Part shown: in pieces, positions 3,556 through 46,189 of the stretch | Layout of the letters: the number at the start of each line of letters is the position of its first letter | Position numbering within the stretch: position 1 is the stretch's first letter | Source of the DNA: an uncultured Candidatus Saccharibacteria bacterium | GTDB lineage: Bacteria; Patescibacteriota; Dojkabacteria; J137 | DNA: 64,000 nt | Assembly: GCA_964414295.1 (NCBI GenBank) | Contig: CAYPVU010000020.1 | Location: 43,289-107,288, forward strand | Direction: 5' to 3' | Translations under genes and position numbers: made by a program | The notes under the pieces: model-generated | What the model was told of the DNA's origin: nothing | Database searches by the model: none | The model's input: the letters and a program-made list of their open reading frames with translations, nothing else

Positions 3556-4866
3556 ATGGAACGAACTTTTATTAAAGACCTATCTAAATTAGTAGGCACA
3601 ACAGTAAAGATTGTAGGATTTGCAGAAAATCAAAGAGAATTAGGGAAAATTACATTTGTAGACCTTAGAGATATTACAGGAAAAGTACAGTGTGTAGGTT
3701 ACCAAATGATGAAAGATGTAACAGTTGAATCAGTTTTAGAGATTGTAGGAGAAGTTAAAGCAAGACCAGAAAAAATGATTAATGCTGAACAAGAGAATGG
3801 TACTGTAGAGATTGATGTTAAAGAATATAAATTGTTAAGTAAGGCTGAAGGATTGCCAATCATGGTAAATGCTAAGGCTCAAAACGAAGCAGAAGTTGAT
3901 GTTAGATTAGACTATAGATGGTTAGACCTAAGAAAACCAGAAAAGCTTTTAGTATTTAAAGTTTGGACAGAATTAGAAAGAGCATTTAGAGAATATTGGA
4001 CATCTAATAATTATTTAGAAATCCACTCTCCTAAGCTATTGGGTGCGCCAAGTGAAAGCGGAGCAGAAGTATTTGAAGTTAAATACTTTGATAGAAAAGC
4101 ATATTTAGCTCAATCGCCGCAATTCTATAAACAAATGGCAATGGCAGCAGGATTCGAAAAAGTCTTTGAAATAGGATCTGTTTTTAGAGCAGAGAATTCA
4201 AACACAATAAGACATACAACTGAATTCACAGGTTATGACGCAGAAATTTCTTACATTAATTCTCATTTTGATGTAATGGAAGAAGAAGAAAAGCTCATTG
4301 CTTTTGGCATGCAGAAAGTTAAAGAAAAGTATGGAGAGGAAATAAAAAAACTTTTAGGAATAGAGATTATTGTACCTACAATTCCATTTCCTAAGTTAAC
4401 AATGAAGGAAGCAAAAGAAATTCTTGCAAATTTAGGAATTAAAAGTGAAAAAGATGGTGACCTTTCAAGTGAAGAAGAAAGAGAACTTGGTATGTATGTA
4501 GAAAAAGAAATGCATCATGAATTTGTTTTTGTAACAGATTATCCAATTGATGTAAGACCTTTCTACCACATGAGACATGAAGATAATCCTACACTTACAA
4601 AGAGTTTTGACTTAATGTTTAAAGGTTTAGAAATAACTACAGGTGCTCAAAGGGAACATAGATACGATGTTCTATTAAATCAGGCAAAAGAAAAAGGAAT
4701 GAATATAGAAAATATTCAATTCTATTTAGATTTCTTTAAATATGGTGTTCCACCTCATGGAGGATTAGGAATGGGACCAAGCAGACTTTTAATGAAGATG
4801 CTTGGATTAGAATCTATTAGAGAATCAATGTTCTTATTTAGAAATCCTAGAAGATTAAATCCATAA
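3556..4866 (+). CDS. aspS: aspartyl-tRNA synthetase, archaeal/eukaryal-type (class IIb)
   Basis: N-terminal OB anticodon-binding fold. Class II motifs QSPQFYKQ and FRAENSNTIRHTTEFTGYD (motif 2). Motif 3 GLGMGPSRLLM and the C-terminal FPR are present. Confidence 0.85.
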   Translation: MERTFIKDLSKLVGTTVKIVGFAENQRELGKITFVDLRDITGKVQCVGYQMMKDVTVESVLEIVGEVKARPEKMINAEQENGTVEIDVKEYKLLSKAEGLPIMVNAKAQNEAEVDVRLDYRWLDLRKPEKLLVFKVWTELERAFREYWTSNNYLEIHSPKLLGAPSESGAEVFEVKYFDRKAYLAQSPQFYKQMAMAAGFEKVFEIGSVFRAENSNTIRHTTEFTGYDAEISYINSHFDVMEEEEKLIAFGMQKVKEKYGEEIKKLLGIEIIVPTIPFPKLTMKEAKEILANLGIKSEKDGDLSSEEERELGMYVEKEMHHEFVFVTDYPIDVRPFYHMRHEDNPTLTKSFDLMFKGLEITTGAQREHRYDVLLNQAKEKGMNIENIQFYLDFFKYGVPPHGGLGMGPSRLLMKMLGLESIRESMFLFRNPRRLNP

Positions 4867-4876
4867 CTTTATTATA

Positions 4877-4900
4877 GGCGGCGCTAAAGCGCCGCTTTGT
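4877..4900 (+). terminator. GC hairpin plus T-tract between aspS and asnS (terminator or attenuator)
   Basis: GGCGGCGC-TAAA-GCGCCGC followed by TTTGTT. It overlaps the TTG start proposed by the ORF track, which argues for the ATG at 4915 as the true asnS start. Confidence 0.5.
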
Positions 4901-4914
4901 TAACTAATTTATTT

Positions 4915-6216
4915 ATGAACGAATATTCAATTTCAAAATCAAAAGAGTTTGCAGGCAAAGAGGTAACTCTTAAAGGCTGGATGTATAACAAAAGAAGCTC
5001 TGGAAAGATTGCATTTTTGCAATTAAGAGATGGAAGCGGTTACATTCAAGGCGTAGTAGAAAAAGCAAATGTTAGTGAAGATACTTGGAAAGCAAGTGAG
5101 GAATTAACAATAGAGTCGTCCTGTGAAGTTATTGGTTTAGTAAAAGAAGAACCAAGATCTCCAAGTGGTTACGAACTACAAGTAAAAGAAGTTAAAGTTG
5201 TTAATATTGCACCAGAATTCCCAATTGGTAAAAAAGAACACGGACCAGAATTTTTATTTGAAAATAGAGATTTATATTTAAGATCTAAAACTCCTTGGGC
5301 AGTTTTAAGAATAAGAGATCAAGTATTTAGATCCGTAACTAATTATTTTTACGAGCAAGGATTTATTAGGTTTGATGCACCAGTTTTACAGCCTACATCA
5401 GCTGAAGATACTTCTCAATTATTCGAAATTGAATATTACGAAGACAAAATGTATTTAACCCAATCAGGACAGCTATATTTAGAAGCTGGAATTATGGGGT
5501 TTGGCAAAGCATACGATTTTGGTCCAGTATTTAGAGCAGAAAAGAGTAAAACTAGAAACCATTTATCTGAGTTCTGGATGATGGATGCAGAAATGGCAAA
5601 TTATGATCAATCCATGAATGAAGATGTTCAAGAAGGAATGGTTAAAAGAATAATTAAAGATGTTTTAGAAAACTGCAAAACTGAATTAAAAGTATTAGAA
5701 AGAGACACTACTGTTCTAGAAAATTGTTTAAATAAAGATTTTGTAAGAATTAAGCATTATGATGCTAAAAAGCTTTTAGAAGATAAAGGATTTAAAGTAG
5801 ATTACAACGATGATATGACTACAGAAGAAGAAATTGAAATCGGTAATCATTTTGGAATTCCAGTATTTATAGAAGACTATCCTTTTGCTGTAAAAGCTTT
5901 CTATATGAAGAAATATACAGATGAAAGAGGAATGGAAAGAGCAAGAAATGCTGATTTAATTGCACCAGAAGAAGCTAGAGAAATAATAGGAGGAAGCCAA
6001 AGAGAAGAATCTTACGAAAAGTTATTAGAAGAATTAAATAAAAGAAACTACCCTGTTTCCGACTATGAATGGTACTTGAATATCAGAAAATATGGATCTG
6101 TTATACATTCTGGATTCGGCTTAGGATTAGAAAGAATGGTTAGATGGGTAAGTGGTGTTCATCATATTAGAGAAACAATCCCTTTCCCTAGAACTACAGT
6201 ATTAAGTAGACCTTAA
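4915..6216 (+). CDS. asnS: asparaginyl-tRNA synthetase (class IIb)
   Basis: Motifs TQSGQLYLE, FRAEKSKTRNHLSEFWMMDAE and GFGLGLERMVRW. The start was moved to the ATG at 4915 (MNEYSISKS...) because the upstream TTG lies inside the hairpin. Confidence 0.8.
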   Translation: MNEYSISKSKEFAGKEVTLKGWMYNKRSSGKIAFLQLRDGSGYIQGVVEKANVSEDTWKASEELTIESSCEVIGLVKEEPRSPSGYELQVKEVKVVNIAPEFPIGKKEHGPEFLFENRDLYLRSKTPWAVLRIRDQVFRSVTNYFYEQGFIRFDAPVLQPTSAEDTSQLFEIEYYEDKMYLTQSGQLYLEAGIMGFGKAYDFGPVFRAEKSKTRNHLSEFWMMDAEMANYDQSMNEDVQEGMVKRIIKDVLENCKTELKVLERDTTVLENCLNKDFVRIKHYDAKKLLEDKGFKVDYNDDMTTEEEIEIGNHFGIPVFIEDYPFAVKAFYMKKYTDERGMERARNADLIAPEEAREIIGGSQREESYEKLLEELNKRNYPVSDYEWYLNIRKYGSVIHSGFGLGLERMVRWVSGVHHIRETIPFPRTTVLSRP

Positions 6217-10065: not shown

Positions 10066-11502
10066 TTAAATTCTATTAGCTACTTTCATTAGAAGATCTT
10101 CACTAAAGTTTTTTCCCATTAACTGTAATCCTATTGGCATTCCTGTTTCATCTTTGCCTGCTGGTACAGCTATAGCTGGAATACCTACTATATTTGCAGT
10201 TACTGTATAAATATCTACTAAATACATTTGAACAGGATCATTTGATTTTTCACCTAGCTTAAACGCTGTTACAGGAGATATTGGGGTTAATAAGCAATCA
10301 ACTTCTTCAAATGCTTTATCGAATTCGCGTTTTAATTTAGTTCTAACTTTACTTGCCTGTTTATAAAATGCATCAGAATAACCTGCGCTTAGGGAATATG
10401 TACCAATCATTATTCTTCTTTTTACTTCAGGTTCTAAATACTGACTTCTAGATTCAAACAGATTTTCTTCGTAATTATCATTTACTTTTTTGCCGTATCT
10501 TACACCATCGTATCTTGCTCTATTAGAAGATATTTCTGCAGGTACTAAAATATAATACACGCTTAAAGCATATTTAGTACTTGGGATAGAAACTTCCTTT
10601 ATTTTGGCTCCCTTAGATTTTAATTCTTCAACTTTTGCTTCAATTGCATTTTTTACAGATTCATTAACACCTTCACCAAAAAATTCCTTTGGTAATCCAA
10701 TTGTTATATTACTTAAATCTATATTACTTAGTTCGTTTAAATAAGAAGGAACTTCTACTTCTTGAGTTGTGGCATCATTTAGGTCTTTTCCAGCCATAAC
10801 TTCCTCTAATAAAGCCATATCTTCTACATTTCTAGTAAAGAAACCTGGGGTATCAAAAGAAGAACCCATTGCTCCAATTCCATATCTGGAGTTTCTTCCG
10901 TAAGTAGGTTTAAGTGAATAAATTCCGCAAAAACTTGCTGGTAATCTAACAGATCCGCCTGTATCTGTACCTAAAGAAAAGAATCCAACACCAGCTAATA
11001 AACTTGCTGCCGATCCTGAACTTGAACCACCAGGGGTTTTTGTAAAATCCAAAGGATGTTTAGTTGGTCCAAATCCTGAATTTTCACCACTACCGCCAAA
11101 TCCCCATGGATCTGAATTGCATTTCCCAATTAGAATAGCTCCTTCATCTAAACATTTTTGTACAACTGTAGATGTGTATGGTGCTATAAAATCAGACATT
11201 AATTGTGAAGAAAATGTAGTTTTAGTATCTTTTACTAAATATAGATCTTTAGCTGTAAAAGGAATTCCTAATAATCTAAATTTACTTACATCCTCCCCAG
11301 ATTCTATTCTAGCGTCTATTAGTTTTGCTTGTTCAATAGCACCATCTAATATTGTTATAAATGCATTTATTTGTGGATTTATTTGATGAGCTCTTTGCAG
11401 ATGCTCACTTACTAAATCAGCAACTTTTACTTCTTTATTCTTTATTTTTTCAACAGTTTTAATTAAGCTCTCGATTGTAGGAATTTCTAAGCTATTGGTC
11501 AT
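10066..11502 (-). CDS. gatA: Asp/Glu-tRNA(Asn/Gln) amidotransferase subunit A (amidase signature)
   Basis: Amidase signature GGSSSGSAASLLAG, a Ser-cisSer-Lys triad context, and 478 aa. Confidence 0.85.
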   Translation of the reverse strand: MTNSLEIPTIESLIKTVEKIKNKEVKVADLVSEHLQRAHQINPQINAFITILDGAIEQAKLIDARIESGEDVSKFRLLGIPFTAKDLYLVKDTKTTFSSQLMSDFIAPYTSTVVQKCLDEGAILIGKCNSDPWGFGGSGENSGFGPTKHPLDFTKTPGGSSSGSAASLLAGVGFFSLGTDTGGSVRLPASFCGIYSLKPTYGRNSRYGIGAMGSSFDTPGFFTRNVEDMALLEEVMAGKDLNDATTQEVEVPSYLNELSNIDLSNITIGLPKEFFGEGVNESVKNAIEAKVEELKSKGAKIKEVSIPSTKYALSVYYILVPAEISSNRARYDGVRYGKKVNDNYEENLFESRSQYLEPEVKRRIMIGTYSLSAGYSDAFYKQASKVRTKLKREFDKAFEEVDCLLTPISPVTAFKLGEKSNDPVQMYLVDIYTVTANIVGIPAIAVPAGKDETGMPIGLQLMGKNFSEDLLMKVANRI

Positions 11503-11753: not shown

Positions 11754-13445
11754 ATGAAAAACGTTAAAAAACTAGAAGCATTATTAGAATATCCATTAAA
11801 GCAATACGACTTTGATGCAATTCTACGGTTAGACTACATGTTAGAAAAGTATAAAGTTTTTGAGACTTTAGATGCTTCTACACATAATATTAAAAGTCAT
11901 TTAATTGGAACTGCCAAGAATGTTGCAAAATGCTTTGATGAATACACAGCTAGCTTAAATTTAATTAACTATGATTATTTAAAAACAACTGCTGTTCTAG
12001 CTGGGTTCTTTCATGATTTGGGTAAGGTATTGTGGGAAGGCAGGGCTATATATGATTCTTTAGAAATTGAGGTCTTATTAAGAAAGTATGGATTTAAAGA
12101 TATTGCTCAAGCAGTTAGACACAACCCATATTTATTTTTGTATGATTTACACAATGGGCATGTAACAATACCACAGTTAGTGGTTACTTATGCTGACTCT
12201 CAAGTAAACTCTGCTGGAGAATATGTTGATAGAAAAGTTAGATTAGAGAAGATTCTAAACAATAAAAGGATTAACAAAACATTTCAAAAAGAGTATTGGT
12301 CAATACTTGAACGAGTTTACGTAAATAGAGTTATAAGAACTCCTCATAGCATAACTAAAATCTCATTTTTTGAAAGATGCGATGGAAGGTATCCAGTTTC
12401 TAACTCTATTGAATCCTTAGGTAAGCTATCGTCTTATCATTTAGCAAAAGAAATGAGCAAGATGGGATACAGTGTTAGTATATTTACCGATAATAGTAAT
12501 GAATTTAATACAGAAGGCATTAACTTTTATGGAATAGGGAGTGATTTATTAGAAAGTTATTCTGCAGCAAAAAAGTTTGATATTACTTTTGTAACAGGAT
12601 GGACATCATTATTTTCGTTATTAAAAAAATCTAATAGCAATTTACCAATGATGGTAATGAGGTCATTAAAAGAAAGTTCATTAAATTCAAAAAGAGTAGA
12701 GCCTTTACTTGAAAATGATTCAAGAGTAATTTTGGTTTCTAAAGAATCAAAGTCATTACTACTAAAGTATACGGATAAAAAAACAGCAAACTTTAGAGTT
12801 ATAGCAAATGGAATCGATAAAAAGACATTTTTCTATAAATCAGGTAATGTACTAAATCAATTTGTTTATGCAGGGGCAACTGTAGAGGAGAAAGGAATTT
12901 ACGAAGTTATAGAAATTGCAAAGGCTTTTCCTAATTTAAAATGCATTATTGCAGGCTCAGCAAATATGTATGGTCAAAATGAAATTAGTAAGGATAAATT
13001 GCCAGACAATATAGTCTTTTTAGGTGAAGTAAGCCAAAGTCAGTTAGCAGAAATTTATAGAACATCGCTATTTAGTCTTGCTTTAACAGATCCAGAAAAA
13101 ATATTTGAAACTTTTGGAAAGTCTGCAGCAGAGTCTCAATTATGTGGTTGTCCTGTTTTGCATTTAAAAAATGGAGGGTTAAATTCAACTGTCTTAGAAT
13201 ATAAATTAAACTTTGGTTTAAAGAAATTTAATTTAGTTAAATTTGCAGAGTTTATAAATCAAAACCTAAATAACTTTAGTGATAGCAATCAAAGAGAAGA
13301 ATTAGCACTTAAAGCTAATGAAGTACACAGAAGTTGGAAAACAATTGCAGGTAATTACTTATTAAGTGCTAATATTGAACTTATACTTTCATTAAAAAAG
13401 TTATTAACAACAAAGCAAAAAATCTTTGATTATTTGTATTCATAA
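11754..13445 (+). CDS. fusion protein: N-terminal HD-domain phosphohydrolase plus C-terminal GT4-type (GT1 fold) glycosyltransferase
   Basis: HD motif LAGFFHDLGK (His...HD). The C-terminal segment has an E-x7-E-like motif ETFGKSAAESQLCGCPV, typical of GT-B retaining glycosyltransferases. Confidence 0.6.
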   Translation: MKNVKKLEALLEYPLKQYDFDAILRLDYMLEKYKVFETLDASTHNIKSHLIGTAKNVAKCFDEYTASLNLINYDYLKTTAVLAGFFHDLGKVLWEGRAIYDSLEIEVLLRKYGFKDIAQAVRHNPYLFLYDLHNGHVTIPQLVVTYADSQVNSAGEYVDRKVRLEKILNNKRINKTFQKEYWSILERVYVNRVIRTPHSITKISFFERCDGRYPVSNSIESLGKLSSYHLAKEMSKMGYSVSIFTDNSNEFNTEGINFYGIGSDLLESYSAAKKFDITFVTGWTSLFSLLKKSNSNLPMMVMRSLKESSLNSKRVEPLLENDSRVILVSKESKSLLLKYTDKKTANFRVIANGIDKKTFFYKSGNVLNQFVYAGATVEEKGIYEVIEIAKAFPNLKCIIAGSANMYGQNEISKDKLPDNIVFLGEVSQSQLAEIYRTSLFSLALTDPEKIFETFGKSAAESQLCGCPVLHLKNGGLNSTVLEYKLNFGLKKFNLVKFAEFINQNLNNFSDSNQREELALKANEVHRSWKTIAGNYLLSANIELILSLKKLLTTKQKIFDYLYS

Positions 13446-13521: not shown

Positions 13522-15378
13522 ATGGGACTACTAGATTTTATTTCTAAAGGTGGTAATAACGCACAGGATCCTAATACAAATCCACCCGCTGTACCTGATT
13601 TTGCAAGTATTCAGCAAAGTTACACAAATCAATCTTTAGCTAATGTTTCTTATCCTATGGCAAATCCTACACCATATACACCAACTAATCCTGTTCCTCC
13701 TCAGTATAATCCTACAGAGCAACAGAGGCAGGAATTTCCTGATGTAAATGCTGCCCCAGCACCTGAGTTTGCACCAAATGCAGCAGTAGCACCTCAGCCT
13801 TTAGATATTATGGAACAAGGAAATGTACCTATGCAGGGTAATGTTACTATGCCAGAGATTCCACCAATGACGCAAAAATTAGTACAGAATCAGAATATTC
13901 AACCAGAAAATACTACAGATGTTCCTGCAGATGGATATGTAGACCCAAGTAAACATCCTGTAATTCCTGCTGTAGTTCCAAATCAAGGACATACTGCAAC
14001 ATTACCTGAGGGAATTAAGATTACAACTTTTGAACCTGTTAATCCTGAAAGTGAATCAGCTGCTGTTCCTCAACCAGTAGCAAATGAACCTGTAGTTGAT
14101 CAGCCACAATCTGTAGAAGTTCCGGAAGTAAAACCTTTTGAAGTTCAACCTAGTCCTGAATTTGCAGTTAGCAACTTTGATTCAAACACATCTTTAAATG
14201 TTGGTATAGAAGCAGCTCCTACTACCAATCAGTTTGAAAGTACAACTGTTGCACCGATGCAGAATAATAGTGTAGAACTACCAGTTATGCCAGATGTTAA
14301 TACATTAACACCTGTAAATACTGAAGCAATTTCAGCTTTACCTAGTCAAGTATTAACTCCAGAAGTTCCTGTAAATCAGAATGAAATTGCAAATCAGTCA
14401 CAATCAATTGAATCTCAAGCACAACAATCAAACTTACCTACTGAACCTGCAGTTGAACAGTCAGCGCCGGTAGAAGGAATTGAAATTGGTGTAGGGAGTA
14501 TGGATTCTCCAATGGCAGATTTGACTTCAGCACAAAACAGTAACTTAGATCCTATGCCAGCAGTAGAATCAACTTTGCCAGTGGCTTCTACAAATGAAAT
14601 ATCAACATTAGACCCAAATAATGCTCTAGTAGAGGATGTTACACAAAATGCTGTAATTCCTGTTCCTGAAGTAACAGAAGTAAAAGAATCAAAAGCCGAA
14701 ACAGCACCTGAAGCTACACAGCCAGTGCCAGTAAATTTTGAAATGAATTATTTTAGAACTATTGGATTTATAGGTTTAAATACTCAGCCTAATCTTAAAG
14801 TTGTAGAAAAGGTATCAGAGTTAGCAGGAAAATTGTCTGATTATGCAGAAGTATTTATAATTGACTCCGCAAAAGGATATGCGAAGACAATATTTGATAG
14901 TGCTAAAGAAAAGAACATAGAATTAACAGGTATGTACTTAAAACCTTTCCACTCTACTTATAGTGACGAAGCAGAATTAGGTGATTATGAGAATTTTACT
15001 GTAATGATGTTCTCAAATAATTCAGATAAAATTAAGAATTTAATAAAAGAGTCCGACATCTTAGTAATGCCTGAAATTACAGGATTAAATAGTCTTGGTA
15101 CATTGTTTGAGATTTGGTCTACAAATAGTATGTATCCAGGTCAGCATAAGCAGCTTATCTTATTAGGAAAAGGTTGGACAAATATTCTAACTCAGTTAAA
15201 AACATTATTTAAATTAACAGATGCTGATTTAAGCTTTGTTAATGTGTGTGCAACAGCAGAGGAAGCATTAGCAAAAATTACAGAGCTAGATAAAATGTAT
15301 TTAAACAAAGAAGTTAAACAACCAAGAAAGGTTATAGATTTAAGAGAAGAAGATGATGAGGAAGGATTATTTATATAA
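13522..15378 (+). CDS. protein with a ~400-aa P/N/Q/V/E-rich low-complexity N-terminus and a C-terminal LOG/TIGR00730-like (SLOG) Rossmann domain
   Basis: The C-terminal ~200 aa contains MPEITGLNSLGTLFEIWS, resembling the LOG PGGxGTxxE motif. The glycine-rich GGGxGxMG motif is degenerate. Confidence 0.5.
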   Translation: MGLLDFISKGGNNAQDPNTNPPAVPDFASIQQSYTNQSLANVSYPMANPTPYTPTNPVPPQYNPTEQQRQEFPDVNAAPAPEFAPNAAVAPQPLDIMEQGNVPMQGNVTMPEIPPMTQKLVQNQNIQPENTTDVPADGYVDPSKHPVIPAVVPNQGHTATLPEGIKITTFEPVNPESESAAVPQPVANEPVVDQPQSVEVPEVKPFEVQPSPEFAVSNFDSNTSLNVGIEAAPTTNQFESTTVAPMQNNSVELPVMPDVNTLTPVNTEAISALPSQVLTPEVPVNQNEIANQSQSIESQAQQSNLPTEPAVEQSAPVEGIEIGVGSMDSPMADLTSAQNSNLDPMPAVESTLPVASTNEISTLDPNNALVEDVTQNAVIPVPEVTEVKESKAETAPEATQPVPVNFEMNYFRTIGFIGLNTQPNLKVVEKVSELAGKLSDYAEVFIIDSAKGYAKTIFDSAKEKNIELTGMYLKPFHSTYSDEAELGDYENFTVMMFSNNSDKIKNLIKESDILVMPEITGLNSLGTLFEIWSTNSMYPGQHKQLILLGKGWTNILTQLKTLFKLTDADLSFVNVCATAEEALAKITELDKMYLNKEVKQPRKVIDLREEDDEEGLFI

Positions 15379-15393: not shown

Positions 15394-15425
15394 AAAAAAA
15401 GGACTCTTTTAAGAGTCCTTTTTTA
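15394..15425. terminator. bidirectional intrinsic terminator
   Basis: AAAAAAA-GGACTCTT-TT-AAGAGTCC-TTTTTT between convergent genes. Confidence 0.65.
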
Positions 15426-15438: not shown

Positions 15439-16875
15439 TTATTTAAGCTTAAGTTCAAATTTATATATGTTATTGACTTCTAATCCTGTAGCATCTTTTT
15501 CCTGTATAAGTGCATAGATTTCGGTATTATTATTCGCAAATAATAATTTATTGTCTACAAATTTAAAATCTTCAAGCAAAGTATGAGCATTAAGTCCATC
15601 ATAGTCCATAATTGTAGCTTTATTATTCTTAAAGAACACAATGTTCTTGCCAGTAGAAGCAAATTCTAAATTATCAAAATCCTCTAAAGAAATATTTAAA
15701 CTATAATTAAATGTATCTAAGGTATTAGCATTAAAGTTATCTTCTGTATAATACGAATGCAAACTATTATTCTTAGTGTACAGTATTAGTCTTCCATTAC
15801 TTAAACCTTTGTAAAAGTTTGCTGTAGTGTCTATAACATCTACAAACTCTTTTTGAAGATCTACATAGTACAAAGTATTGTTTGTAGATAGTACTAATAT
15901 ATTAGGATTTTCTGCTACAGTATAAACATTATCTAGTTGATTTGGGATAAATGGCACTAGTTTAGATGTAAATTTATACTCTGCTATAGCTTTGTTTGTA
16001 TAGTAATAGAGTTTATTATTTCTTATAAAATAAATAGTATTTGTTGTTACGCTGATTGTAGAATCGCTTTCAGTTAAATTTACTAGACTAATTTGTTGAC
16101 TTACTAAATCATACTCAAAGTAGTAATTATCGTATTTAAATATTATTGATTGATCCTCTTTAAACCAAGAGAGCTCTTGAGTTGTATTAATATTTAACTG
16201 CTGATTTAAATTGGTTCTTTTTGTAGTATCTGATAGGTTATAAAGGTAGTTGTTACTTCCTGCCTGCAATATGAGTTTATTATTATTGGACGATATTAAA
16301 AGATTATAACTGTTATTTAATAATTCTTCTGTTTCTAGAGCTGTAAACCTTACAATCTGACTTCTTTGGAGTGTGTTAGAAAAATCTAATAAATTTCTAC
16401 TGAGCTTAATTCGCCAAATTCCATCTAAAGCACTTTTATTCAGTACAGTGTAGTAAATATATTGTCCATCTGCTGAATAAAAACTCTTGCTTATATTTTG
16501 CTCTGCAATTTTAGAAAAAGGTACAGTATTAGGATAAAGCTGAGCAAAAACATCTTTTACAATTCCAGACTCTACTTTAATTTGTTTCTCCCATGGTGAA
16601 TATCCCTCTTTACTTAATCGTAAGTTTACAATACCCGGATTAATTCCTGTAATTCTAAAATCAGAAAGTTGAACTTCTTCGTCATTAATATATGCTTTTA
16701 TGTTGTCTGCTGGTATAGATGTTATTCTTATAATCCCTGTTTGAATAAACTGGCCACTTTCTTCTAATTTTTGTCCTTGAGAAATAATTAAAACAACAAT
16801 AGAAGCAACTAAAAATAAACCCAATGAAGCCAATGGGAGTATAAATTTTAATATAGATTTGGTAATTTTGGTCAT
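15439..16875 (-). CDS. signal-anchored secreted protein with an N-terminal PEGA-like domain and a beta-rich C-terminal region
   Basis: An N-terminal TM is followed by ITSIPADNIKAYINDEEVQ...GINPGIVNLRLSKEGYSPWEKQIKV (PEGA-like). The rest is N/Y/S/T-rich repeat-like sequence. Confidence 0.45.
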   Translation of the reverse strand: MTKITKSILKFILPLASLGLFLVASIVVLIISQGQKLEESGQFIQTGIIRITSIPADNIKAYINDEEVQLSDFRITGINPGIVNLRLSKEGYSPWEKQIKVESGIVKDVFAQLYPNTVPFSKIAEQNISKSFYSADGQYIYYTVLNKSALDGIWRIKLSRNLLDFSNTLQRSQIVRFTALETEELLNNSYNLLISSNNNKLILQAGSNNYLYNLSDTTKRTNLNQQLNINTTQELSWFKEDQSIIFKYDNYYFEYDLVSQQISLVNLTESDSTISVTTNTIYFIRNNKLYYYTNKAIAEYKFTSKLVPFIPNQLDNVYTVAENPNILVLSTNNTLYYVDLQKEFVDVIDTTANFYKGLSNGRLILYTKNNSLHSYYTEDNFNANTLDTFNYSLNISLEDFDNLEFASTGKNIVFFKNNKATIMDYDGLNAHTLLEDFKFVDNKLLFANNNTEIYALIQEKDATGLEVNNIYKFELKLK

Positions 16876-16906
16876 ATCTCCATTTTAAGTCAAATTACTT
16901 TAAATT

Positions 16907-18466
16907 TCATCTAACAAGTTGTTTTTCACTCCATGTTACTCTTTTTGTATGTTCCTGACCTAACATCATTCTAGTTGTAGACTCAATAAACGGTAAGAAT
17001 CCAAAAGTGAAGAGAGATATAATGTTAAATGGTATTTCGACTATTAAAGTAGCTATATACTTAACTATTGGCATCTTTTTAGGTCTAGAAGGAATAATAA
17101 ATAATTTTATAATTGTATTAGGAATTAAAAATAGAGTAGCTAAAGTTAAAAGGTTCGATACAGTTTGTGGTACTGTTATTGATATTACTTGTCTACTAAG
17201 TTCATAATTAATCAAAAATACAATTGGAATTCCAAATGCAATTAGAAACGCCAATACTTTCCAAAAGACAAATACTTCAAACAAATGATAAATCTTAGTT
17301 ATTCTCTCAATTAAAGGAATATTCTTGTTATATAAAAGCTCCTTAGTTGCTAAAGGAAAAGTTATTACCCCCCAACCCCATCTTACATATTGCTTGTACT
17401 GATCTACATGATTTTTAAAGTAGTTTTTATTATAGACTGCATCTGCACTTAATGGGGTAAAGAATACTTCGCATTTCCAATCACCATTAAAGTAAAAGTA
17501 AGGTCTCCAGAAGAAAGTAGTATCATCTATACCAAGAGAAGTATCCCAGTAATTTACAGCTTTCATAACACCTAAATTTAAGGTAAAGCACGACCAAGTT
17601 TCTCTTTTATTCTTTTCTAAAACAGAAGACGATAGCACGGGTAATGTAAGTCCAACCATTAAAATTCTTACAAGCATTGGAACATCCCAATAGTTATTAT
17701 TAAATGTGTATAGTCCAGTTTGGTAAAACTTCTTATTTCTTTTTTCTGCTGTTAACCATCTAAAAGTTAGTGAAGCTAAATAATCTCCGCTAAAAACTAA
17801 ATCTCCATCTGGAGCAGTAATTAAAAATTCATTTATATCTTCGCCTCTACTTTCTAATATCTCTACAGTTTGTCTTGTTCCCCAGGTTCTATTTGCAGCA
17901 GCACCTATAGCTTCACCGTCAATATTTTCTGGATGAGTAAAGCAAAACAATCTATCACCAAATATATCTCCAAAGTCTCTTTTTAGATATTCACCTCTTT
18001 TAGCATATTCGGGGTCTTTTTTTGCTTTTCTTTCTTCAATAGAAACAGCTAAATAAATTAACTCTGTAGGGTAATTTTGATTAATCAAGGCATTAATAGA
18101 TCTTTTTATTACATCGTACTCTTCTCCATAATTTGCAATTACTATTAATTGTTTAGGTAGAAGTCCACTTTTAGGAAGAGTTTCTGGTTCAGGCAGTAAA
18201 TTCCTATCTAAAGAAAGACATTCTTTAAGCCAATCTTTTTTTGAAGCTCTCCAAACTTGAAAATATCCAATTATTGAACCAATGCTTAGTATAAAAGCTC
18301 TATAGACCCAGTAGACAGATAAGACTACTAAAATATTAATAATAAGATATGGGAAAGAAAATCCTAGCCATAATGGTGATAGTAGAAATACCCAAATCAA
18401 AACCCCAGGAATAATTTCTAAAATTCTTTGAATAATTCTGTCATTAAAAGCTCTTTCCTTAGTCAT
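16907..18466 (-). CDS. processive family-2 glycosyltransferase (membrane-embedded polysaccharide synthase; cellulose/chitin/hyaluronan-synthase-like)
   Basis: Two N-terminal and several C-terminal TM helices flank a GT-A domain. The domain has a DGD (DxD) motif and the QxxRW hallmark (QYVRW). Confidence 0.65.
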   Translation of the reverse strand: MTKERAFNDRIIQRILEIIPGVLIWVFLLSPLWLGFSFPYLIINILVVLSVYWVYRAFILSIGSIIGYFQVWRASKKDWLKECLSLDRNLLPEPETLPKSGLLPKQLIVIANYGEEYDVIKRSINALINQNYPTELIYLAVSIEERKAKKDPEYAKRGEYLKRDFGDIFGDRLFCFTHPENIDGEAIGAAANRTWGTRQTVEILESRGEDINEFLITAPDGDLVFSGDYLASLTFRWLTAEKRNKKFYQTGLYTFNNNYWDVPMLVRILMVGLTLPVLSSSVLEKNKRETWSCFTLNLGVMKAVNYWDTSLGIDDTTFFWRPYFYFNGDWKCEVFFTPLSADAVYNKNYFKNHVDQYKQYVRWGWGVITFPLATKELLYNKNIPLIERITKIYHLFEVFVFWKVLAFLIAFGIPIVFLINYELSRQVISITVPQTVSNLLTLATLFLIPNTIIKLFIIPSRPKKMPIVKYIATLIVEIPFNIISLFTFGFLPFIESTTRMMLGQEHTKRVTWSEKQLVR

Positions 18467-18511
18467 TTTATCCTTTAAATCTTTATGTTAATATAAATCC
18501 GTACTAGCTTA

Positions 18512-18913
18512 ATGAATAAACCTATGCAACAAGACGAGAATCCTAATGCAGATAATACTAACTCTAATTCTAGTAAAGTTCAAGATGGCACAACTCAGTC
18601 ATCGTTATCCGATATAAAAAGTAAAGTAAAAGTAGAAGAAATCTCTGAAGGAGTTTATAGGGCGACTACAGAGAAAAGCAGCTATATAATTGAGTATGAT
18701 ATTAATAAATGTATAGGGGCAGCCTCATGTGCTGCTATTGCACCATTGACTTTCTTTATGAACGAAGAAAACAAAGCTCAAATACGTGAAGATGTAGAAG
18801 ACTTTGACGAAGATGAAGTTATTTTAGCAGGTGCCCAATCTTGTCCAGTATTTGCTATAAAAATTATCGAAAAATCTACAGGGAATGTTTTATTCCCTAT
18901 AGAAGGTGACTAA
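18512..18913 (+). CDS. small ferredoxin-like protein with 3 Cys (CxxAxxC...CP, [3Fe-4S]-type) and a disordered N-terminal extension
   Basis: CIGAASCAAIAP ... AQSCPVFAI. The second Cys of the classical CxxCxxC is replaced by Ala. Confidence 0.5.
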   Translation: MNKPMQQDENPNADNTNSNSSKVQDGTTQSSLSDIKSKVKVEEISEGVYRATTEKSSYIIEYDINKCIGAASCAAIAPLTFFMNEENKAQIREDVEDFDEDEVILAGAQSCPVFAIKIIEKSTGNVLFPIEGD

Positions 18914-20036
18914 AATGCAAAATTTAATAAAAAGCATTAAGCGAAACAAACATTTAATACTTTCAGTATTAATAGTTATTCTTGGCTTTTTGTTATTCTT
19001 TCCAACTAAGGTAATTACTATAGATGAGCATGACTATTTAAACAATGCACATCTTTTAATTAATGGTGATTTAAAAACAGATTGTAATTTAAATATACCT
19101 GGCCAGTGGCCAACTAATTTAGGATATTGTATTTCTAAATACAATATCGGTACTTCAATTTTTTTAATACCTGCAGTATTGATTGATACTAATTTAGTGA
19201 TACTGACTTCCTTAGTAATATTTTCTTTTTCTATATTGGTATTCTATAAACTAATAATTTTTTATAAATTAGATAAAAAACTAATTTATATCTTTGCTTT
19301 GTTTCCACCGTTTATATTCTTTTCTAGAACTTTACTTTCCGAAATTTACTCAATGAGTATATTGCTATTTATCTACTACAGCCTTTTAAATCTTAAAAGT
19401 TTTAAGTATAGAATTCTTGCACCTATATTGATTATCATTTCTTTATACATTAGATATACAAATATAATTCCGGTAGGTATATTAGCTATCTACTTCCTTA
19501 TATATTACTTAAGACAAGAATCTTTTAAGGACTTAGTCAAGAAGTATTGGATAATACCTATTATTTTAGGATTAGGTGCAATAACATTGTTTATTTTTAA
19601 TCATAATTACTACGGATTTTTTTTAAGATCAGGATATTACTTCTCGGCAGAAGAGGGTAATATTGTTCCTCTTCAATTCCCAGTTGTATTTTTTAAATAC
19701 TTTTTATTAGTAAATATCTTTTATCCGTTTGGGTTGATTTTTCTTTTTAAAAGCAGGATAAAGCATACAAAGTTATTTGCAGTATTATTTATAACTTTGC
19801 TTTTATTCTACAGTATAGTAAAAAATGAAAGTTTCCCCGGCAAATTATCAGATATTATATTAGGCTTAAGATTTTTAATTCCAGTATATCCATTTTTAAT
19901 ACTTCCTTATGCTGGATTAATAAATAACTTTAAAAATGAAAGGGTTTATAAATATTTGATGTATACTATTATTATCCTATTAATTTGTTCAAGCCTGTTA
20001 GTGAATTTACTGCACTATAATTTTATAAATAAATGA
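18906..20036 (+). CDS. GT-C fold membrane glycosyltransferase (ArnT/PMT GT39/GT83-like)
   Basis: About 10 TM helices. The first extracytoplasmic loop carries a DE motif (TIDEHDYLNNAHLL), as in ArnT/PMT. Confidence 0.5.
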   Translation: MTKMQNLIKSIKRNKHLILSVLIVILGFLLFFPTKVITIDEHDYLNNAHLLINGDLKTDCNLNIPGQWPTNLGYCISKYNIGTSIFLIPAVLIDTNLVILTSLVIFSFSILVFYKLIIFYKLDKKLIYIFALFPPFIFFSRTLLSEIYSMSILLFIYYSLLNLKSFKYRILAPILIIISLYIRYTNIIPVGILAIYFLIYYLRQESFKDLVKKYWIIPIILGLGAITLFIFNHNYYGFFLRSGYYFSAEEGNIVPLQFPVVFFKYFLLVNIFYPFGLIFLFKSRIKHTKLFAVLFITLLLFYSIVKNESFPGKLSDIILGLRFLIPVYPFLILPYAGLINNFKNERVYKYLMYTIIILLICSSLLVNLLHYNFINK

Positions 20037-21181
20037 AAATAATATTACTTACAACTTTCTATAAACCTTCTGTGGGAGGGGTGGAGAGACAGGTAGAAGA
20101 AATATTTTTAAATCTAAAGAAGAGAGGACACAATGTAAGGGTCTTTACTACTGATGCTTCTCATTCAACTAATAAAAGGTTAAAAAATGTTCCTGTTGAA
20201 CATGATGTAGAAAGATTTAAATATTTGTTTGGATTTGGATTCTTTTTTAGATTCTCCTTGAGTCTTGTAATAAATCTACTATTTACAGACTTTGATGTAG
20301 TACATGTCCATAATTCACACGATGCCCATTTACTTCCGGCTCTATTAATAAAGATAATTAGAAGAAAAAAGATTGTAATTACTGGACATAATCCTTATGT
20401 AGTAGATAAATCCAAGCGAAAAGAAAGACTGTCAAAAGGAGTAATATTATTTGACTCAATATTAAAAATCTTTAGATTAGGTGTAGATAAATATATTGCA
20501 TTGTTAGAATCCGAGAAGCAATTTGTAAATAACTACTTAAAGATTCCCCTAAATAAGATAGACATTATTCCAAATGGAATTAGAGATCCTTATTACAAGG
20601 AAGTAAGACAACTTACCGATAGTAATCTTTTTTATACCAAATATAATTTAGATAAAGATAAGTATAAATTAGTTGCAGGATTACTATGTAGAGTAGATTT
20701 TGTAAAAGGTATTCAAAACTTAAAAACTGCAGTTAATAATAATCCCGACTGTTTATTTATAATAGGGGGCGGAGATGGGGGATATTTAGAATCTCTAAAA
20801 GAAATGTTTAAAGAAAACTCTAATATATTTTTTACAGGAGAATTTTTGAATGTAAATGAGTCATTAGACTTTTATGCGTTTATTGATATATTTTTGCTAC
20901 CAAGTGTATATGAACCTTTTGGTATTACAATTGTAGAAGCTATGACCCAAGGTAAGTATATATTGGCAAGTTCTAAAGGGGGGCCTAAAGAGATTATTAA
21001 AGGAGAGTACGGGGAAGTTCTTGATCCTTTAAATGAACAAATGTGGTCCGATAGAATTAAGGATATAAAAGAGAGTATCGATGTTTTTACTACTAAGGGG
21101 CAACTTGGAATTAAAGACTCTTTAGAGTATAAGTGGGAAAGAATTACCGATAAATTAGTAAGTTTATATAAATCAATTTGA
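20033..21181 (+). CDS. GT4-family (GT-B) glycosyltransferase
   Basis: C-terminal EPFGITIVEAM (E-x7-E motif), plus a GT1-like N-terminal domain. Confidence 0.7.
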   Translation: MKIILLTTFYKPSVGGVERQVEEIFLNLKKRGHNVRVFTTDASHSTNKRLKNVPVEHDVERFKYLFGFGFFFRFSLSLVINLLFTDFDVVHVHNSHDAHLLPALLIKIIRRKKIVITGHNPYVVDKSKRKERLSKGVILFDSILKIFRLGVDKYIALLESEKQFVNNYLKIPLNKIDIIPNGIRDPYYKEVRQLTDSNLFYTKYNLDKDKYKLVAGLLCRVDFVKGIQNLKTAVNNNPDCLFIIGGGDGGYLESLKEMFKENSNIFFTGEFLNVNESLDFYAFIDIFLLPSVYEPFGITIVEAMTQGKYILASSKGGPKEIIKGEYGEVLDPLNEQMWSDRIKDIKESIDVFTTKGQLGIKDSLEYKWERITDKLVSLYKSI

Positions 21182-21257: not shown

Positions 21258-21926
21258 ATGAAAATACCATCTTTTGTTTGGGTTGTACTTATTCTTATAG
21301 TAGGATTTGGTTTTTTAATGCTTTTAGCAAATCAAAAAAACAATCAAAGTGTAGTTAATGCAACATTACCTGTAGATGTAGAAGTTTATGTAGATTTTAA
21401 CTGTCCACACTGTGCTGAATTTGAACCATTTGTAACTGAGGCTAGAGAAAAATATGGAGATAAAGTTAATATTCAGGTAAAAATGCTTCCATTTTTAACT
21501 TCTGGACAAACTCCAGACACATCTGCCGAATATGCTTATGCAGCTTTAGCAGCAGGAAAGCAAGATAAAAAAGAGGAATTTACAGAATTGCTTTTTAAAT
21601 GGATAACATTTAGAAAAAGCCCTACAAATACAATCTTTACCTATACAGATGAAGAGAAGCAATTATTTGCAAATACAATAAATTTGGAAGAATTAGCTTC
21701 TTATTTAGAGCTTGACGTTCAAAAGTTTAATGCAGATAGAGTTAGTTCCGAAGTTAAAGCAGAATTACTTGCAGAAAAAGATTCCGCAGTAAAAAGAATG
21801 GGTGCTATTTCTACACCAGCAGTCTTTTACTATGGCACTTACCAAAAACTAAGTACGTATAACGATTTAGATGCTAAAATTGATTCCTATATAAAGCAAG
21901 CTGAAGCCTCAACAACAAATAAATAA
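21258..21926 (+). CDS. membrane-anchored DsbA-family thiol:disulfide oxidoreductase
   Basis: N-terminal TM and the thioredoxin active site CPHC. Confidence 0.7.
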   Translation: MKIPSFVWVVLILIVGFGFLMLLANQKNNQSVVNATLPVDVEVYVDFNCPHCAEFEPFVTEAREKYGDKVNIQVKMLPFLTSGQTPDTSAEYAYAALAAGKQDKKEEFTELLFKWITFRKSPTNTIFTYTDEEKQLFANTINLEELASYLELDVQKFNADRVSSEVKAELLAEKDSAVKRMGAISTPAVFYYGTYQKLSTYNDLDAKIDSYIKQAEASTTNK

Positions 21927-21930: not shown

Positions 21931-22689
21931 ATGAGATTAAGTCGTTTTTTTACAGAAAGAAAGAATTTAAGAATTGGTAGCAGTGTTAAATTGGCAGATA
22001 CGGATATAGAACATATTAGAAAAGTTCTTAGATTACAGAAAGGCGATAAGGTAATAGTATTTAACGGTGAAAAAGAATTTTCTGCAATTTTAACTCTTGT
22101 TAAAAAGGATGTTGTACTAGTTAAACTCGAAGAATTACTAAAGGAAGATTTAGAAAAATCCGATAGAACTAAATTTACATTAATACAAGGTTTATTAAGA
22201 GCTGGTAAATTTGATACTATAATTGAAAAAACTACAGAATTAGGTATTGATAATATTATTCCTACTGAATGCGACTTTTCTCAGACTAAAGTTGAAGTTG
22301 TAGAAAGAAAACTAGATAGATGGAATAAACTAGCTGTCGCTGCTGCCAAGCAGAGTGAAAGAATAGATGTTCCTTTAATCTATGAAGGAGTTGTATTTAA
22401 GGATTTGGAAAACTTACTTAAAGAATTTGATGAAGTTATTTTTTTTACAATACCTAGAAAGAAAATTCCCGAATCTTTAGAATCATTAAAGCTATCACAA
22501 CTAAAACCTAACAAAACTGCTAAGAATATTGCATTTCTAATTGGGCCAGAAGGCGGTTTTTCGCCTAGAGAACATGAATGGGCTAAAAGCTGGAACTTAA
22601 AGTTTGTCCATTTTGATGGACCTGTATTAAGATCAGAAACTGCAAGTATTGTTTTAACCGGAATATTAAAATATATTTATTCTATTTAG
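21931..22689 (+). CDS. rsmE: 16S rRNA (uracil1498-N3)-methyltransferase
   Basis: N-terminal PUA-like region and the C-terminal SPOUT motif GPEGGFSPRE. Confidence 0.8.
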   Translation: MRLSRFFTERKNLRIGSSVKLADTDIEHIRKVLRLQKGDKVIVFNGEKEFSAILTLVKKDVVLVKLEELLKEDLEKSDRTKFTLIQGLLRAGKFDTIIEKTTELGIDNIIPTECDFSQTKVEVVERKLDRWNKLAVAAAKQSERIDVPLIYEGVVFKDLENLLKEFDEVIFFTIPRKKIPESLESLKLSQLKPNKTAKNIAFLIGPEGGFSPREHEWAKSWNLKFVHFDGPVLRSETASIVLTGILKYIYSI

Positions 22690-42106: not shown

Positions 42107-43027
42107 CTATTCTCTAATTTTTTTACTACCTATCTTTCCCGTTTTACTAGAATAATTAATATTGAGTATGTCTTTTAGAGCTTTATTAAATCTAATTAGT
42201 AAGATTAAACTAACATTAATTATTATTACAACAATAATTAAAATATAATTTACATAAAAGAAAGTTGTTTTTTTTACAGTACTTTTGTTTGTAAGTGTAT
42301 CTGTTACTAATACTTCTGCACGATATTGTCCTATGTCTAAAAGATCAGAAATTGGGATGCTTGCATCAATATTGTAAGTTTCTGAATTATAAATCATCTT
42401 TAAATTCTCGTTTAAGACCTTTGTATATACTATCTGCCCTTTATTACTAATTATATTAAGATTAATTATTGGTTTTGATACTTGATTAATGGCTGGATTA
42501 TCAATAGTTAAATTTAAATTAACTACATTACTTATGAGTAACTTTTGCGATACAGCAAATTCTTTGATGATAGTGCCTACTTCACTAGAAAATGTAGAGT
42601 CTACGAATACACTTATAGTATAAGGAATTTGTAGTATTACTAAAGAATCATTATTACTTTTATCTGTAACCTCCAATACAATAGCTTTTTTATAAACTCC
42701 TTTTGAACTATTTTCAGGAACGATTAACTTGTAATCAATTACTTGAGTACCTTTAGAAGCTAAGATTACATTTAAAGAAGATAGTTCAATCCATGGTGTA
42801 CTTGTTTGAATAGGAACCTCATTAATAATATCGTATTCCTTTAAAACTATCGATATGGGTATCTCTTCATTATTAGTAATTGAAAACTTTCCTGAATGAC
42901 TGTCCTGTGTTTTTAAAGTTATACTCTCAGTTGCAGGAGTAATGGTAACTCCTGTCTCTGCAGCCTCAATCTGTTGACTAAAGACAGATATTAAAATTAC
43001 AATTGTTGTAAATATCCACTTAAACAT
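42107..43027 (-). CDS. anchored surface protein, B-type paralog 4 (signal peptide plus C-terminal TM anchor)
   Basis: The C-terminus IGQYRAEVLVTD...YILIIVVIIINVSLILLIRF is shared with 43020, 45073 and 47239. N-terminal signal peptide. Confidence 0.55.
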   Translation of the reverse strand: MFKWIFTTIVILISVFSQQIEAAETGVTITPATESITLKTQDSHSGKFSITNNEEIPISIVLKEYDIINEVPIQTSTPWIELSSLNVILASKGTQVIDYKLIVPENSSKGVYKKAIVLEVTDKSNNDSLVILQIPYTISVFVDSTFSSEVGTIIKEFAVSQKLLISNVVNLNLTIDNPAINQVSKPIINLNIISNKGQIVYTKVLNENLKMIYNSETYNIDASIPISDLLDIGQYRAEVLVTDTLTNKSTVKKTTFFYVNYILIIVVIIINVSLILLIRFNKALKDILNINYSSKTGKIGSKKIRE

Positions 43028-43931
43028 TTTTTCTTTTTAAATTTCTTACTGTAAAAATAATAATTCCCAAAATAATAACTATTAGCCAGATGGGTATAAC
43101 AAATATTCTGCTTTTTTGCGTATAAACGTTATTTTCAAGACCATATAAAAAATTTAAAGATACTTCATACTCACCAAGAACTAACTGATTAAAGTAAATA
43201 TCTTTTGTATAGTTTCTAAGAGAGAATGAGTTTACAATTCGGCCTTCAGTATTGAAATCACTGTTTAATACATCGGGACCAAAACCAAATTTCTTATTTA
43301 GTGTAATTACTCCTGTAGGAGTTATTATCTGATTACTGTTATTTAAAACAGTTATAGAGTAGTTTACGCCATTTGAAATATAATTATAACCAACATCAAA
43401 TGTATCTAAAGAGATATCTCCATAACTAATACCTTGTACACCTGCAACATTTATAATAAATGGAACGCCTATACTTTGCTTTATAGAAGTTTTTGTCTCA
43501 CTTAAATTATTATTACTATTAGTAATTGTTTCAAAAAGTAATGTAAATAAATAACCACCTGGGGGAGTCTCGGGATTTATAGCTAGATCAAGTGTGTATT
43601 CATATCTTTCTTTAGGCTTTAGTACAATTGTATTCTTAAAATTTCTAATCCAATTTAAAATTGTTTCATCAATACTTTCATCAAATAGAATTTCTTGATT
43701 ATTATTAATTAATTTAAAACTTCTTAAATTAACTCCTAATACTACTTCTTCTGACTCATTATTTAATAGCGTTATTAGAACCTTTTCAGAATCATTTCCC
43801 TTATAGTTTTTTTGAACCTTTATAGGGCTTATTGAAATTCCATTTCCTTCATCTGCAGTTATAATAATACTTCCAGAAAGAATAATTAGTAGTATAAAAG
43901 ATATTGTGAATAAACCCTTTAGTATATTCAT
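43020..43931 (-). CDS. anchored surface protein, B-type paralog 3 (DUF916/DUF3324-like topology)
   Basis: N-terminal signal. C-terminal GEYEVSLNF...FVIPIWLIVIILGIIIFTV plus basic tail, homologous to 45073 and 47239. Confidence 0.55.
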   Translation of the reverse strand: MNILKGLFTISFILLIILSGSIIITADEGNGISISPIKVQKNYKGNDSEKVLITLLNNESEEVVLGVNLRSFKLINNNQEILFDESIDETILNWIRNFKNTIVLKPKERYEYTLDLAINPETPPGGYLFTLLFETITNSNNNLSETKTSIKQSIGVPFIINVAGVQGISYGDISLDTFDVGYNYISNGVNYSITVLNNSNQIITPTGVITLNKKFGFGPDVLNSDFNTEGRIVNSFSLRNYTKDIYFNQLVLGEYEVSLNFLYGLENNVYTQKSRIFVIPIWLIVIILGIIIFTVRNLKRKNV

Positions 43932-46176: not shown

Positions 46177-46189
46177 TATCTAAATACAT

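Follow-up and report, generated by a model that had tools for sequence, protein, structure and literature searches.

A divergent, minimal BcsA-like membrane glycosyltransferase and an adjoining PEGA-domain protein as a candidate surface-polysaccharide system of Dojkabacteria

Results

The subject of this analysis is a 64-kb stretch of DNA (herein "the window"; contig CAYPVU010000020.1, positions 43,289 to 107,288) from an uncultured bacterium of the Candidate Phyla Radiation (CPR, Patescibacteria), whose minus strand carries two adjacent genes for a membrane-bound family 2 glycosyltransferase (GT2) and a PEGA-domain protein. We consider it probable that these two genes form an operon and a functional unit, that the GT2 is a very divergent, membrane-integrated synthase which is restricted to CPR lineages and is closest to BcsA, and that both proteins together make and export a sugar polymer of the cell surface, which is overall the best explanation of the data. 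A preliminary description of the region had combined five genes in one glycosylation locus, i.e. the two mentioned genes and a divergent plus-strand unit of a ferredoxin, a GT-C fold glycosyltransferase and a family 4 glycosyltransferase (GT4). All five open reading frames (ORFs) are present as described, each with conserved homologues (Table 1), and the gene-by-gene calls are correct, but a unified locus and a coupling of the ferredoxin to the GT-C enzyme are unsupported.

The GT2 and its likeness to processive synthases

An AlphaFold model of the GT2 was built on 34 homologues (pLDDT 87.8, pTM 0.87), and in a Foldseek comparison of this model with the PDB, the top 21 matches are BcsA and the hyaluronan synthases (HAS) of Chlorella virus and Xenopus, except for PcManGT at ranks 15 and 17. 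The leading matches have E-values of 3e-8 to about 1e-6 and cover about 490-590 aligned columns, i.e. nearly the full length, with TM-scores (TMq) of 0.41-0.51, and further down the list follow PcManGT, which is a membrane mannosyltransferase, and then soluble GT-A enzymes. According to hydropathy and model, two N-terminal transmembrane (TM) helices precede a cytoplasmic GT-A domain (about residues 105-345) and an interface helix with the motif QYVRW (359-363). In the C-terminal part, there are two clear TM helices (about 392-424 and 439-460) and a basic cytoplasmic loop, followed by a weaker hydrophobic helix with a conserved Glu and a conserved Pro, and by a basic tail. TM helices are found on both sides of the glycosyltransferase domain, and the model superposes on the solved synthases. 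The preliminary description had recognized in this protein a synthase-type membrane topology with QYVRW and DGD motifs and had pointed to BcsA and HAS for comparison; fold, motifs and hydropathy agree with that, and BcsA and HAS are the best structural matches.

The sequence of the window protein has no match in Pfam or NCBIfam, and searches against the PDB returned nothing, neither with the single sequence nor with a 34-sequence profile. The signature of processive GT2 enzymes is nevertheless recognizable in the correct order, with DxD (DGD at 220-222), the acid pair D314/D315 and QxxRW, while an invariant E144 replaces the first Asp. These key residues are invariant in 34 family members, in which QNYP, E144-E-R146, N192-R193, YQ249T...N257N258, I-D314-D315-T and Q359-x-x-R362-W363-GWG are invariant as well. 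In a wide family alignment of 39 sequences, D220, D222, D315, Q359, R362, W363 and K515 are (near-)invariant, and the WWE3 branch reads the canonical FDAD or FDSD where the window protein has DGD. With the profile of this wide family, BcsA is the best PDB sequence match, at a non-significant E-value of 0.016. The hidden Markov model (HMM) alignment pairs viPtykEp of the family with LVPSYNEP of BcsA, GKgaN with HAKAGN, tlDaD with VFDADH, and QlrRWawG with QRGRWATG, and it places E144/E145 under the DD of BcsA.

The C-terminal tail of the wide family is conserved as ...AQTRLMLGK-x-[FY]-x-V-T-x-K, with variants such as YRVTEK, FWVTEK and FWVTPK, and FXVTXK is the gating-loop signature of cellulose synthases that occurs as 503-FAVTAK-508 in BcsA (PMC10374906). 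In the window protein the tail is the degenerate VTWSEK, in which only a Ser (for Thr) and the Lys (K515) of the motif are kept. The tail is modelled with a pLDDT below 50, as expected for a mobile loop, and low confidence for the gating loop was also noted in the cited paper (PMC10374906). Every family member stops within a few residues of the motif Lys, in case of the window protein four residues past K515 at residue 519, and there is no room after the gating-loop-like tail for TM7/8 and a PilZ domain, which are missing in the family. A BcsB partner is missing as well, as the adjoining gene encodes the PEGA protein, which has no BcsB signature. The predicted architecture of the GT2 is a BcsA-like core that is cut off after the gating loop, and the family is a minimal BcsA-like variant, so far seen only in CPR lineages, and not a categorically new system.

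How large this family is was assessed by searching 1.84 billion representative proteins exhaustively with a profile, which gave 350 members at E ≤ 1e-30, 1,214 at E ≤ 1e-10 and 2,004 at E ≤ 1e-3, and the family is thus real but small and does not merge with mainstream GT2 synthases at the sequence level. The known members belong to Dojkabacteria and WWE3, nearly all of them are annotated as "hypothetical protein", and the literature that we searched on Dojkabacteria/Patescibacteria, synthases and PEGA proteins yielded no description of the family. Distant members pass the threshold of PF13632 (Glyco_trans_2_3; 27 bits), with 41.4 bits for P0213 and 44.9 bits for P0235, and as the window GT2 itself does not match PF13632, its membership there is only transitive. 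In NCBIfam, the family has weak links to PgaC/IcaA and CelA only. One member from outside the window, P0150 (790 aa), is a natural fusion in which a conventional GT2 domain (PF00535, 2e-26; weakly similar to GT21) precedes the synthase-like module, and this additional N-terminal domain may have the role of a priming or adaptor transferase. On one Dojkabacteria contig (JAGQLH010000004.1), two paralogues of the family (L027 and L072) are encoded about 15 kb apart, and some genomes thus carry more than one synthase.

What else could the GT2 be? It could be a GtrB/DPMS-type polyprenyl-phosphate transferase that makes a lipid-linked donor for the neighbouring GT-C enzyme, which needs such a donor while the locus encodes no other GT2, and PcManGT is indeed among the structural matches. 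However, BcsA and HAS outrank PcManGT, which first appears at rank 15, no GtrB-named entry is found in the top 50 Foldseek matches, and the GT2 family has a far wider distribution than the GT-C. Moreover, QxxRW is present in the GT2 together with two TM helices at the N-terminus and a gating-loop-like tail, and we know of no GtrB/DPMS enzymes with these features. We have therefore rejected this identity, which we regard as highly improbable; the preliminary description had named a defective QxxRW/DxD or a GtrB-like enzyme as the findings that would speak against a synthase, and both motifs are intact.

As a further alternative, the GT2 may be a transferase that is non-processive or limited in product length and acts on a membrane lipid, or a producer of short oligomers. 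Lipid glycosyltransferases as well as oligosaccharide synthases are found among the GT2 enzymes of the QxxRW type, and the synthases of glycosyl-diacylglycerol and glucosylceramide as well as NodC-type enzymes share D, DxD, D, QxxRW and the embedding in the membrane. As CPR bacteria scavenge lipids from their hosts, a decoration of such lipids would be plausible. The GT2 is a short protein with few TM helices, the membrane GT2 monotransferase PcManGT is at Foldseek rank 15 and is the second distinct protein in the PDB profile search, and the domain that P0150 fuses to the module matches mainly PF00535 and more weakly GT21. On the other hand, polymer synthases are the best matches in structure and sequence, the family has the FxVTxK motif known from cellulose synthases and related beta-glucan synthases, and the genes around family members encode a WecA-type initiating enzyme, a polysaccharide acyltransferase/DUF2334 fusion and an extracellular PEGA protein. 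We hence consider a lipid-specific or oligomer-forming enzyme unlikely and prefer a synthase that exports a polymer, with the limitation that the TM-scores of the model are modest. The lack of BcsB, of a PilZ domain and of an outer export partner would fit the alternative. The proposed role of the PEGA protein as partner is deduced from the adjacency of the genes.

The PEGA protein and its association with the GT2

The PEGA domain (PF08308) covers residues 47-113 (30.7 bits at a cutoff of 20.8) and is present in 12 of 12 orthologues. A single hydrophobic segment at residues 4-37 constitutes the N-terminal anchor, and the C-terminal part of about 360 aa, which is predicted to be extracytoplasmic, gives only sub-threshold hints of TolB, PD40 and THOC3, i.e. 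of a beta-propeller. The gene follows the GT2 gene after a gap of 31 nt with a GGAG upstream of its start, and behind it the operon is closed by a terminator (Table 1).

We surveyed the gene contexts of 83 loci by means of tblastn and custom HMMs; of the 114 loci that a scan of GTDB representative genomes had returned, 80 were kept, all from Dojkabacteria and WWE3. Full-length PEGA orthologues adjoin the GT2 in 13 loci, at GT2 identities from 89% down to 32%, and they do so in three orientations, i.e. downstream co-directional, upstream divergent and downstream convergent. Such a recurrence in three orientations across deep divergence argues for selection and not for inherited synteny. Within Dojkabacteria, the pair of GT2 and PEGA is the only combination that recurs across deep divergence. 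The pairing of the GT2 with a signal-anchored PEGA protein, as proposed in the preliminary description, is supported by its conservation in evolution. By analogy, the PEGA protein is the leading candidate for a partner on the outside that functions like BcsB, albeit one without homology to BcsB.

Partners of the GT2 in WWE3 and other lineages

In 41 WWE3 loci (L003, L036, L088 and 38 others; e.g. L036:7001-9989), the GT2 is translationally coupled to a phosphotransferase of PF00953, with the stop of the GT2 gene overlapping the start of the phosphotransferase gene, most commonly by 4 or 11 nt. The phosphotransferase has about 495 aa including an N-terminal extension, and it scores better as WecA than as MraY. 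In at least 21 loci, there is, 2-4 kb downstream, a UbiA-family gene that scores above the equivalog cutoff for decaprenyl-phosphate phosphoribosyltransferase, and tandem-PEGA/SH3-like proteins are encoded 3-6 kb from the GT2. Within the 64-kb window, HMMs that were derived from these WWE3 neighbours detected no WecA-type (PNPT) and no UbiA homologues. In some other lineages, a GT4 or a double GT4 is encoded directly upstream of the GT2, and in some a LysM-M23 hydrolase. The most divergent member surveyed (L085:5965-11372, 30% identity) has a 333-aa PF00953 protein upstream, and a 988-aa fusion of Acyl_transf_3 and DUF2334 overlaps the GT2 stop by 8 nt, which suggests an acylated or otherwise modified polysaccharide. 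The neighbours are thus varied, but they indicate that the GT2 is everywhere in the company of envelope-glycan genes, with partners that are specific for the lineage.

The divergent ferredoxin, GT-C and GT4 genes

Do the five genes of the window belong to one pathway, in which the GT-C and the GT4 build or attach the glycan or O-glycosylate proteins, and in which the ferredoxin serves as redox partner of the GT-C? The packing of the genes is tight, with a divergent region of only 45 bp, a 1-nt gap between ferredoxin and GT-C, which in locus L090 is a 4-nt overlap, and an ATGA at which the start of the GT4 gene overlaps the stop of the GT-C gene. The full layout is kept in L005, L007, L008, L018/L032, L087 and L090, and in L013 a different GT-C, of the PMT_2 type, adjoins the GT2. 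However, the full layout occurs only where the GT2 is at least 83% identical, i.e. in the closest relatives. In L001, with 71% GT2 identity, ferredoxin, GT2, PEGA, GT4, DsbA and RsmE are retained, and an extracytoplasmic function (ECF) sigma factor and a DUF4349 protein replace the GT-C. The ferredoxin is divergent from the GT2 in about nine loci, and as a monocistronic gene it faces a putative DHH-type gene in convergent orientation in L013, L015 and L017. Homologues of the GT-C with at most 38% identity are found in unrelated housekeeping contexts, never near a ferredoxin, a GT4 or this GT2. In addition, the plus-strand string continues into genes for a DsbA-like protein and RsmE and is thus functionally mixed, and to our knowledge no GT-C or GT2 mechanism needs an electron donor. 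The adjacency of ferredoxin and GT-C in relatives, which had been proposed as a check, is clade-specific, and a dedicated redox pair of both was rejected, as the adjacency is local and the string runs on into DsbA and RsmE. We therefore judge a common pathway of all five genes to be quite improbable. The string of ferredoxin, GT-C, GT4, DsbA and RsmE is a clade-specific, recent juxtaposition with the synthase operon. The PMT_2-type GT-C in L013 (L013:8548-10065, minus strand; 505 aa, 29 bits at a cutoff of 26.1) is unrelated to that of the window, convergent with the GT2 with a 4-nt overlap, and belongs to a lineage without the window's GT-C, so that an adjacency of GT2 and GT-C arose at least twice.

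The GT-C had been described as an enzyme of 376 aa with a DE loop that overlaps the ferredoxin gene by 8 nt. Fold and acidic motif are right, whereas length and overlap were artefacts of taking the furthest-upstream GTG (18906) as start. Translation starts at the ATG at 18915, with GAAGGTGA in front of it, and this start agrees with an exact database copy (P0121, 373 aa) and with independent gene calls in L005 and L087. The true gap of 1 nt and the genuine overlap in L090 mean that the tight packing of ferredoxin and GT-C is real in the window's clade. The AlphaFold model of the GT-C has a pLDDT of 85.7 and a pTM of 0.88, and its top 17 Foldseek matches are all GT-C enzymes (STT3, PglB, ArnT, ALG9/12, Pmt4, AftA, EmbA/B; TMq 0.41-0.58), in line with the folds of the ArnT/PMT/AglB type that had been suggested. 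The loop after TM1 contains TIDEHDY, of which D37, E38 and D40 are invariant in 15 sequences. While the window protein itself has no Pfam or NCBIfam match, three homologues have precomputed PMT_2 matches, one is annotated as ArnT-like and one as GT39, and direct Pfam scans gave weak PMT_2 matches in 4 of 15 and GT22 matches in 5 of 15. A GT2 that synthesizes the donor for the GT-C was not identified in the window. In the first external loop of the GT-C, C57 is invariant and C72 is kept in at least 90% of the sequences, so a disulfide between both is possible; the DsbA-like oxidoreductase is encoded two genes downstream.

The GT4 that had been assigned to the following ORF is clearly confirmed by strong Pfam matches, with Glyco_transf_4 in the N-terminal (5e-23, 82.3 bits) and Glycos_transf_1 in the C-terminal domain (3e-20, 72.7 bits). 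Each of the two enzymes, GT-C and GT4, probably has a role of its own in envelope glycans.

The ferredoxin, for which a spurious ORF had been considered, is a genuine, predicted 3-Cys single-cluster type. It matches Fer4_13 with 35.6 bits at a cutoff of 24.5, and its Ala-substituted motif C-IGA-A-SC...CP (CxxAxxC...CP) is invariant in 9 orthologues. An N-terminal extension of about 55 aa is of low complexity, and the best PDB match is the ferredoxin of Pyrococcus furiosus (4e-7). We regard the protein as a general electron carrier, and nothing in the data connects its function to glycosylation.

Table 1. Features of the GT2-PEGA operon and of the adjacent divergent string (positions in the window)
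Feature	Position	Strand	Basis or remark
Bidirectional intrinsic terminator, 13-bp stem between A and T runs	15395..15424	n/a	Closes the GT2-PEGA operon
Bitopic PEGA-domain protein, 478 aa	15439..16875	-	Pfam PEGA, 3e-7
Divergent BcsA-like membrane GT2 synthase (predicted), 519 aa	16907..18466	-	Model, Foldseek, motif alignment, hydropathy
Divergent intergenic region between GT2 and ferredoxin, 45 bp	18467..18511	n/a	Coordinates
Single-cluster ferredoxin, 133 aa	18512..18913	+	Fer4_13, 1.5e-8
Minimal GT-C fold glycosyltransferase, 373 aa, TM core only	18915..20036	+	Model, Foldseek, DEHD motif
GT4 (GT-B fold) glycosyltransferase, 382 aa	20033..21181	+	Pfam, two domains
Membrane-anchored DsbA-like thioredoxin	21258-21926	+	Co-directional neighbour without glycan role
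RsmE rRNA methyltransferase	21931-22689	+	Co-directional neighbour without glycan role

Genomic setting

The window has a GC content of about 30%, and the closest relatives of its proteins are found in Candidatus Dojkabacteria. Most of it is filled by housekeeping genes, such as tRNA synthetases, a GatA-type amidase (10066-11502), MutS and EF-P. The tRNA synthetases include tandem class II D/K/N-type paralogues, presumably AspRS and AsnRS (3556-4866 and 4897-6216, plus strand). Among 20 further window genes that were annotated because they are operon-like or flank the locus, there are none for sugar-nucleotide biosynthesis, and the region is thus not a classical self-contained polysaccharide cluster. 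A promoter scan was uninformative in this AT-rich DNA, with 26 sites at 38 expected by chance.

Two further plus-strand genes lie close to the synthase operon. The first (11754-13445), two genes away from the operon, encodes a 563-aa protein with a C-terminal GT4 domain (Glycos_transf_1, 1e-14) and a weak N-terminal HD-domain signal (E=0.017, under the Pfam cutoff), which would be an unusual combination. The second (13522-15378), which converges on the PEGA gene and shows synteny with the locus in L001, L005, L007, L008 and L032, encodes a 618-aa protein with about 400 N-terminal residues that are rich in P, Q, N and V and of low complexity, followed by a globular C-terminal half. This protein has no match in Pfam, NCBIfam or the PDB, and the C-terminal half has no PDB match either. 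Further away on the minus strand (42107-50728), six successive co-directional ORFs of 303-381 aa without Pfam match lie directly downstream of two genes of the same strand, of which one encodes a weakly BslA-like and the other a Big_5 Ig-like protein, and this block may comprise surface or appendage genes.

Discussion

How could the GT2 and the PEGA protein function together? The steps described here are derived from what is known of BcsA and HAS. By homology, the GT2 would be an inverting, metal-dependent polymerase of UDP-sugars. The UDP-sugar would be bound in the cytoplasmic GT-A domain, with E144 in the place of the first Asp, D220-x-D222 would coordinate the metal and the diphosphate, D315 would act as the catalytic base, and W363 of QxxRW would hold the growing chain at its acceptor end. 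The polymer would then be threaded through a pore that is made by the TM helices of the GT2 itself, while the C-terminal gating loop ([FY]xVTxK in the family, VTWSEK in the window protein) would open and close the active site. As there is no PilZ domain, the GT2 should be independent of cyclic di-GMP (c-di-GMP), i.e. constitutive or regulated in another way. On the outside, the PEGA protein, anchored by one helix and otherwise extracellular, may receive or guide the polymer.

As the WWE3 synthase is coupled to a WecA-type phosphotransferase, the polymer may start there on a polyprenyl-diphosphate-N-acetylhexosamine primer, and this coupling suggests, by analogy, a lipid-primed synthesis in WWE3. 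One could go further and regard GT2 and PEGA as a minimal, c-di-GMP-independent, two-component secretion machine of the cellulose synthase type, so far seen only in CPR bacteria, which elongates a WecA-made primer of this kind and passes a beta-glycan to a PEGA/propeller-like partner, resulting in a wall-associated polymer that would serve these ultra-small episymbionts for envelope integrity or host attachment. In this complete form, the idea is rather doubtful and clearly speculative.

CPR bacteria represent a large share of bacterial diversity, and their envelopes and host-attachment molecules are almost unknown. A stripped-down BcsA-like synthase family with about 350-1,200 representative clusters, which is nearly always annotated as hypothetical and which has lineage-specific partners such as the PEGA protein, a WecA-type initiating enzyme, GT4s and a polysaccharide acyltransferase, is a concrete candidate for the synthesis of CPR surface polysaccharides. 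A natural minimal cellulose-synthase architecture without PilZ, TM7/8 and BcsB may also be of use for mechanistic work. Finally, as the juxtaposition of ferredoxin and GT-C is recent and local, caution is advisable when function is to be read into tight packing in compact CPR genomes.

Comparison with known systems

Among the known systems, BcsA is the best match of the window GT2 in structure as well as in sequence. Both have a membrane-embedded GT-A domain between TM helices and the same order of motifs, i.e. IPxYNE, GKxxN, DxD, a (T)ED-type acid, QxxRW in an interface helix and, at the level of the family, the FxVTxK loop. The differences are the exchange of the first Asp for Glu and of TED for DD, the two N-terminal TM helices of the window GT2 in comparison to four in BcsA, the lack of TM7/8 and of the PilZ c-di-GMP domain, and the PEGA protein in the position of BcsB.

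Class I HAS (Chlorella virus HAS, 7SP7-7SP9; Xenopus HAS1, 8SMM) and NodC/chitin synthases are of similar size (about 500 aa). Like the window GT2, they have two N-terminal TM helices, then the GT domain, and then C-terminal TM and interface helices, and the HAS give the best TM-scores with the window GT2 (TMq 0.50-0.51, TMt 0.52-0.53). They are single-protein synthase-exporters, as is proposed for the window GT2. In contrast to the FxVTxK of the GT2 family, HAS and NodC/chitin synthases carry a WGTR/K-type loop, and no sequence similarity of these enzymes to the window GT2 was detectable in the PDB searches with the single sequence and the 34-sequence profile.

With respect to the pathway, the coupling of the GT2 to WecA-type enzymes in the 41 WWE3 loci and in L085 has a parallel in WbbF of Salmonella O:54, a GT2 synthase that is thought to polymerize and export a glycan begun on undecaprenyl-phosphate (PMC6286764). 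This likeness concerns the gene context, the window has no WecA-type gene, and its host is a monoderm CPR bacterium without lipopolysaccharide.

The two neighbouring proteins can be compared in the same way. The GT-C has its fold and the acidic DEHD motif in the first external loop in common with enzymes of the ArnT/PMT/ALG type, but it has only 373 aa and no large extracytoplasmic domain. The ferredoxin has the same CxxXxxC...CP spacing as single-cluster ferredoxins of the P. furiosus type and [3Fe-4S] ferredoxins of Fer4_13/Fer4_15. Its variable ligand position is Ala where P. furiosus has Asp, so that a 3-Cys cluster is predicted, and the low-complexity N-terminal extension sets it apart from the P. 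furiosus type.

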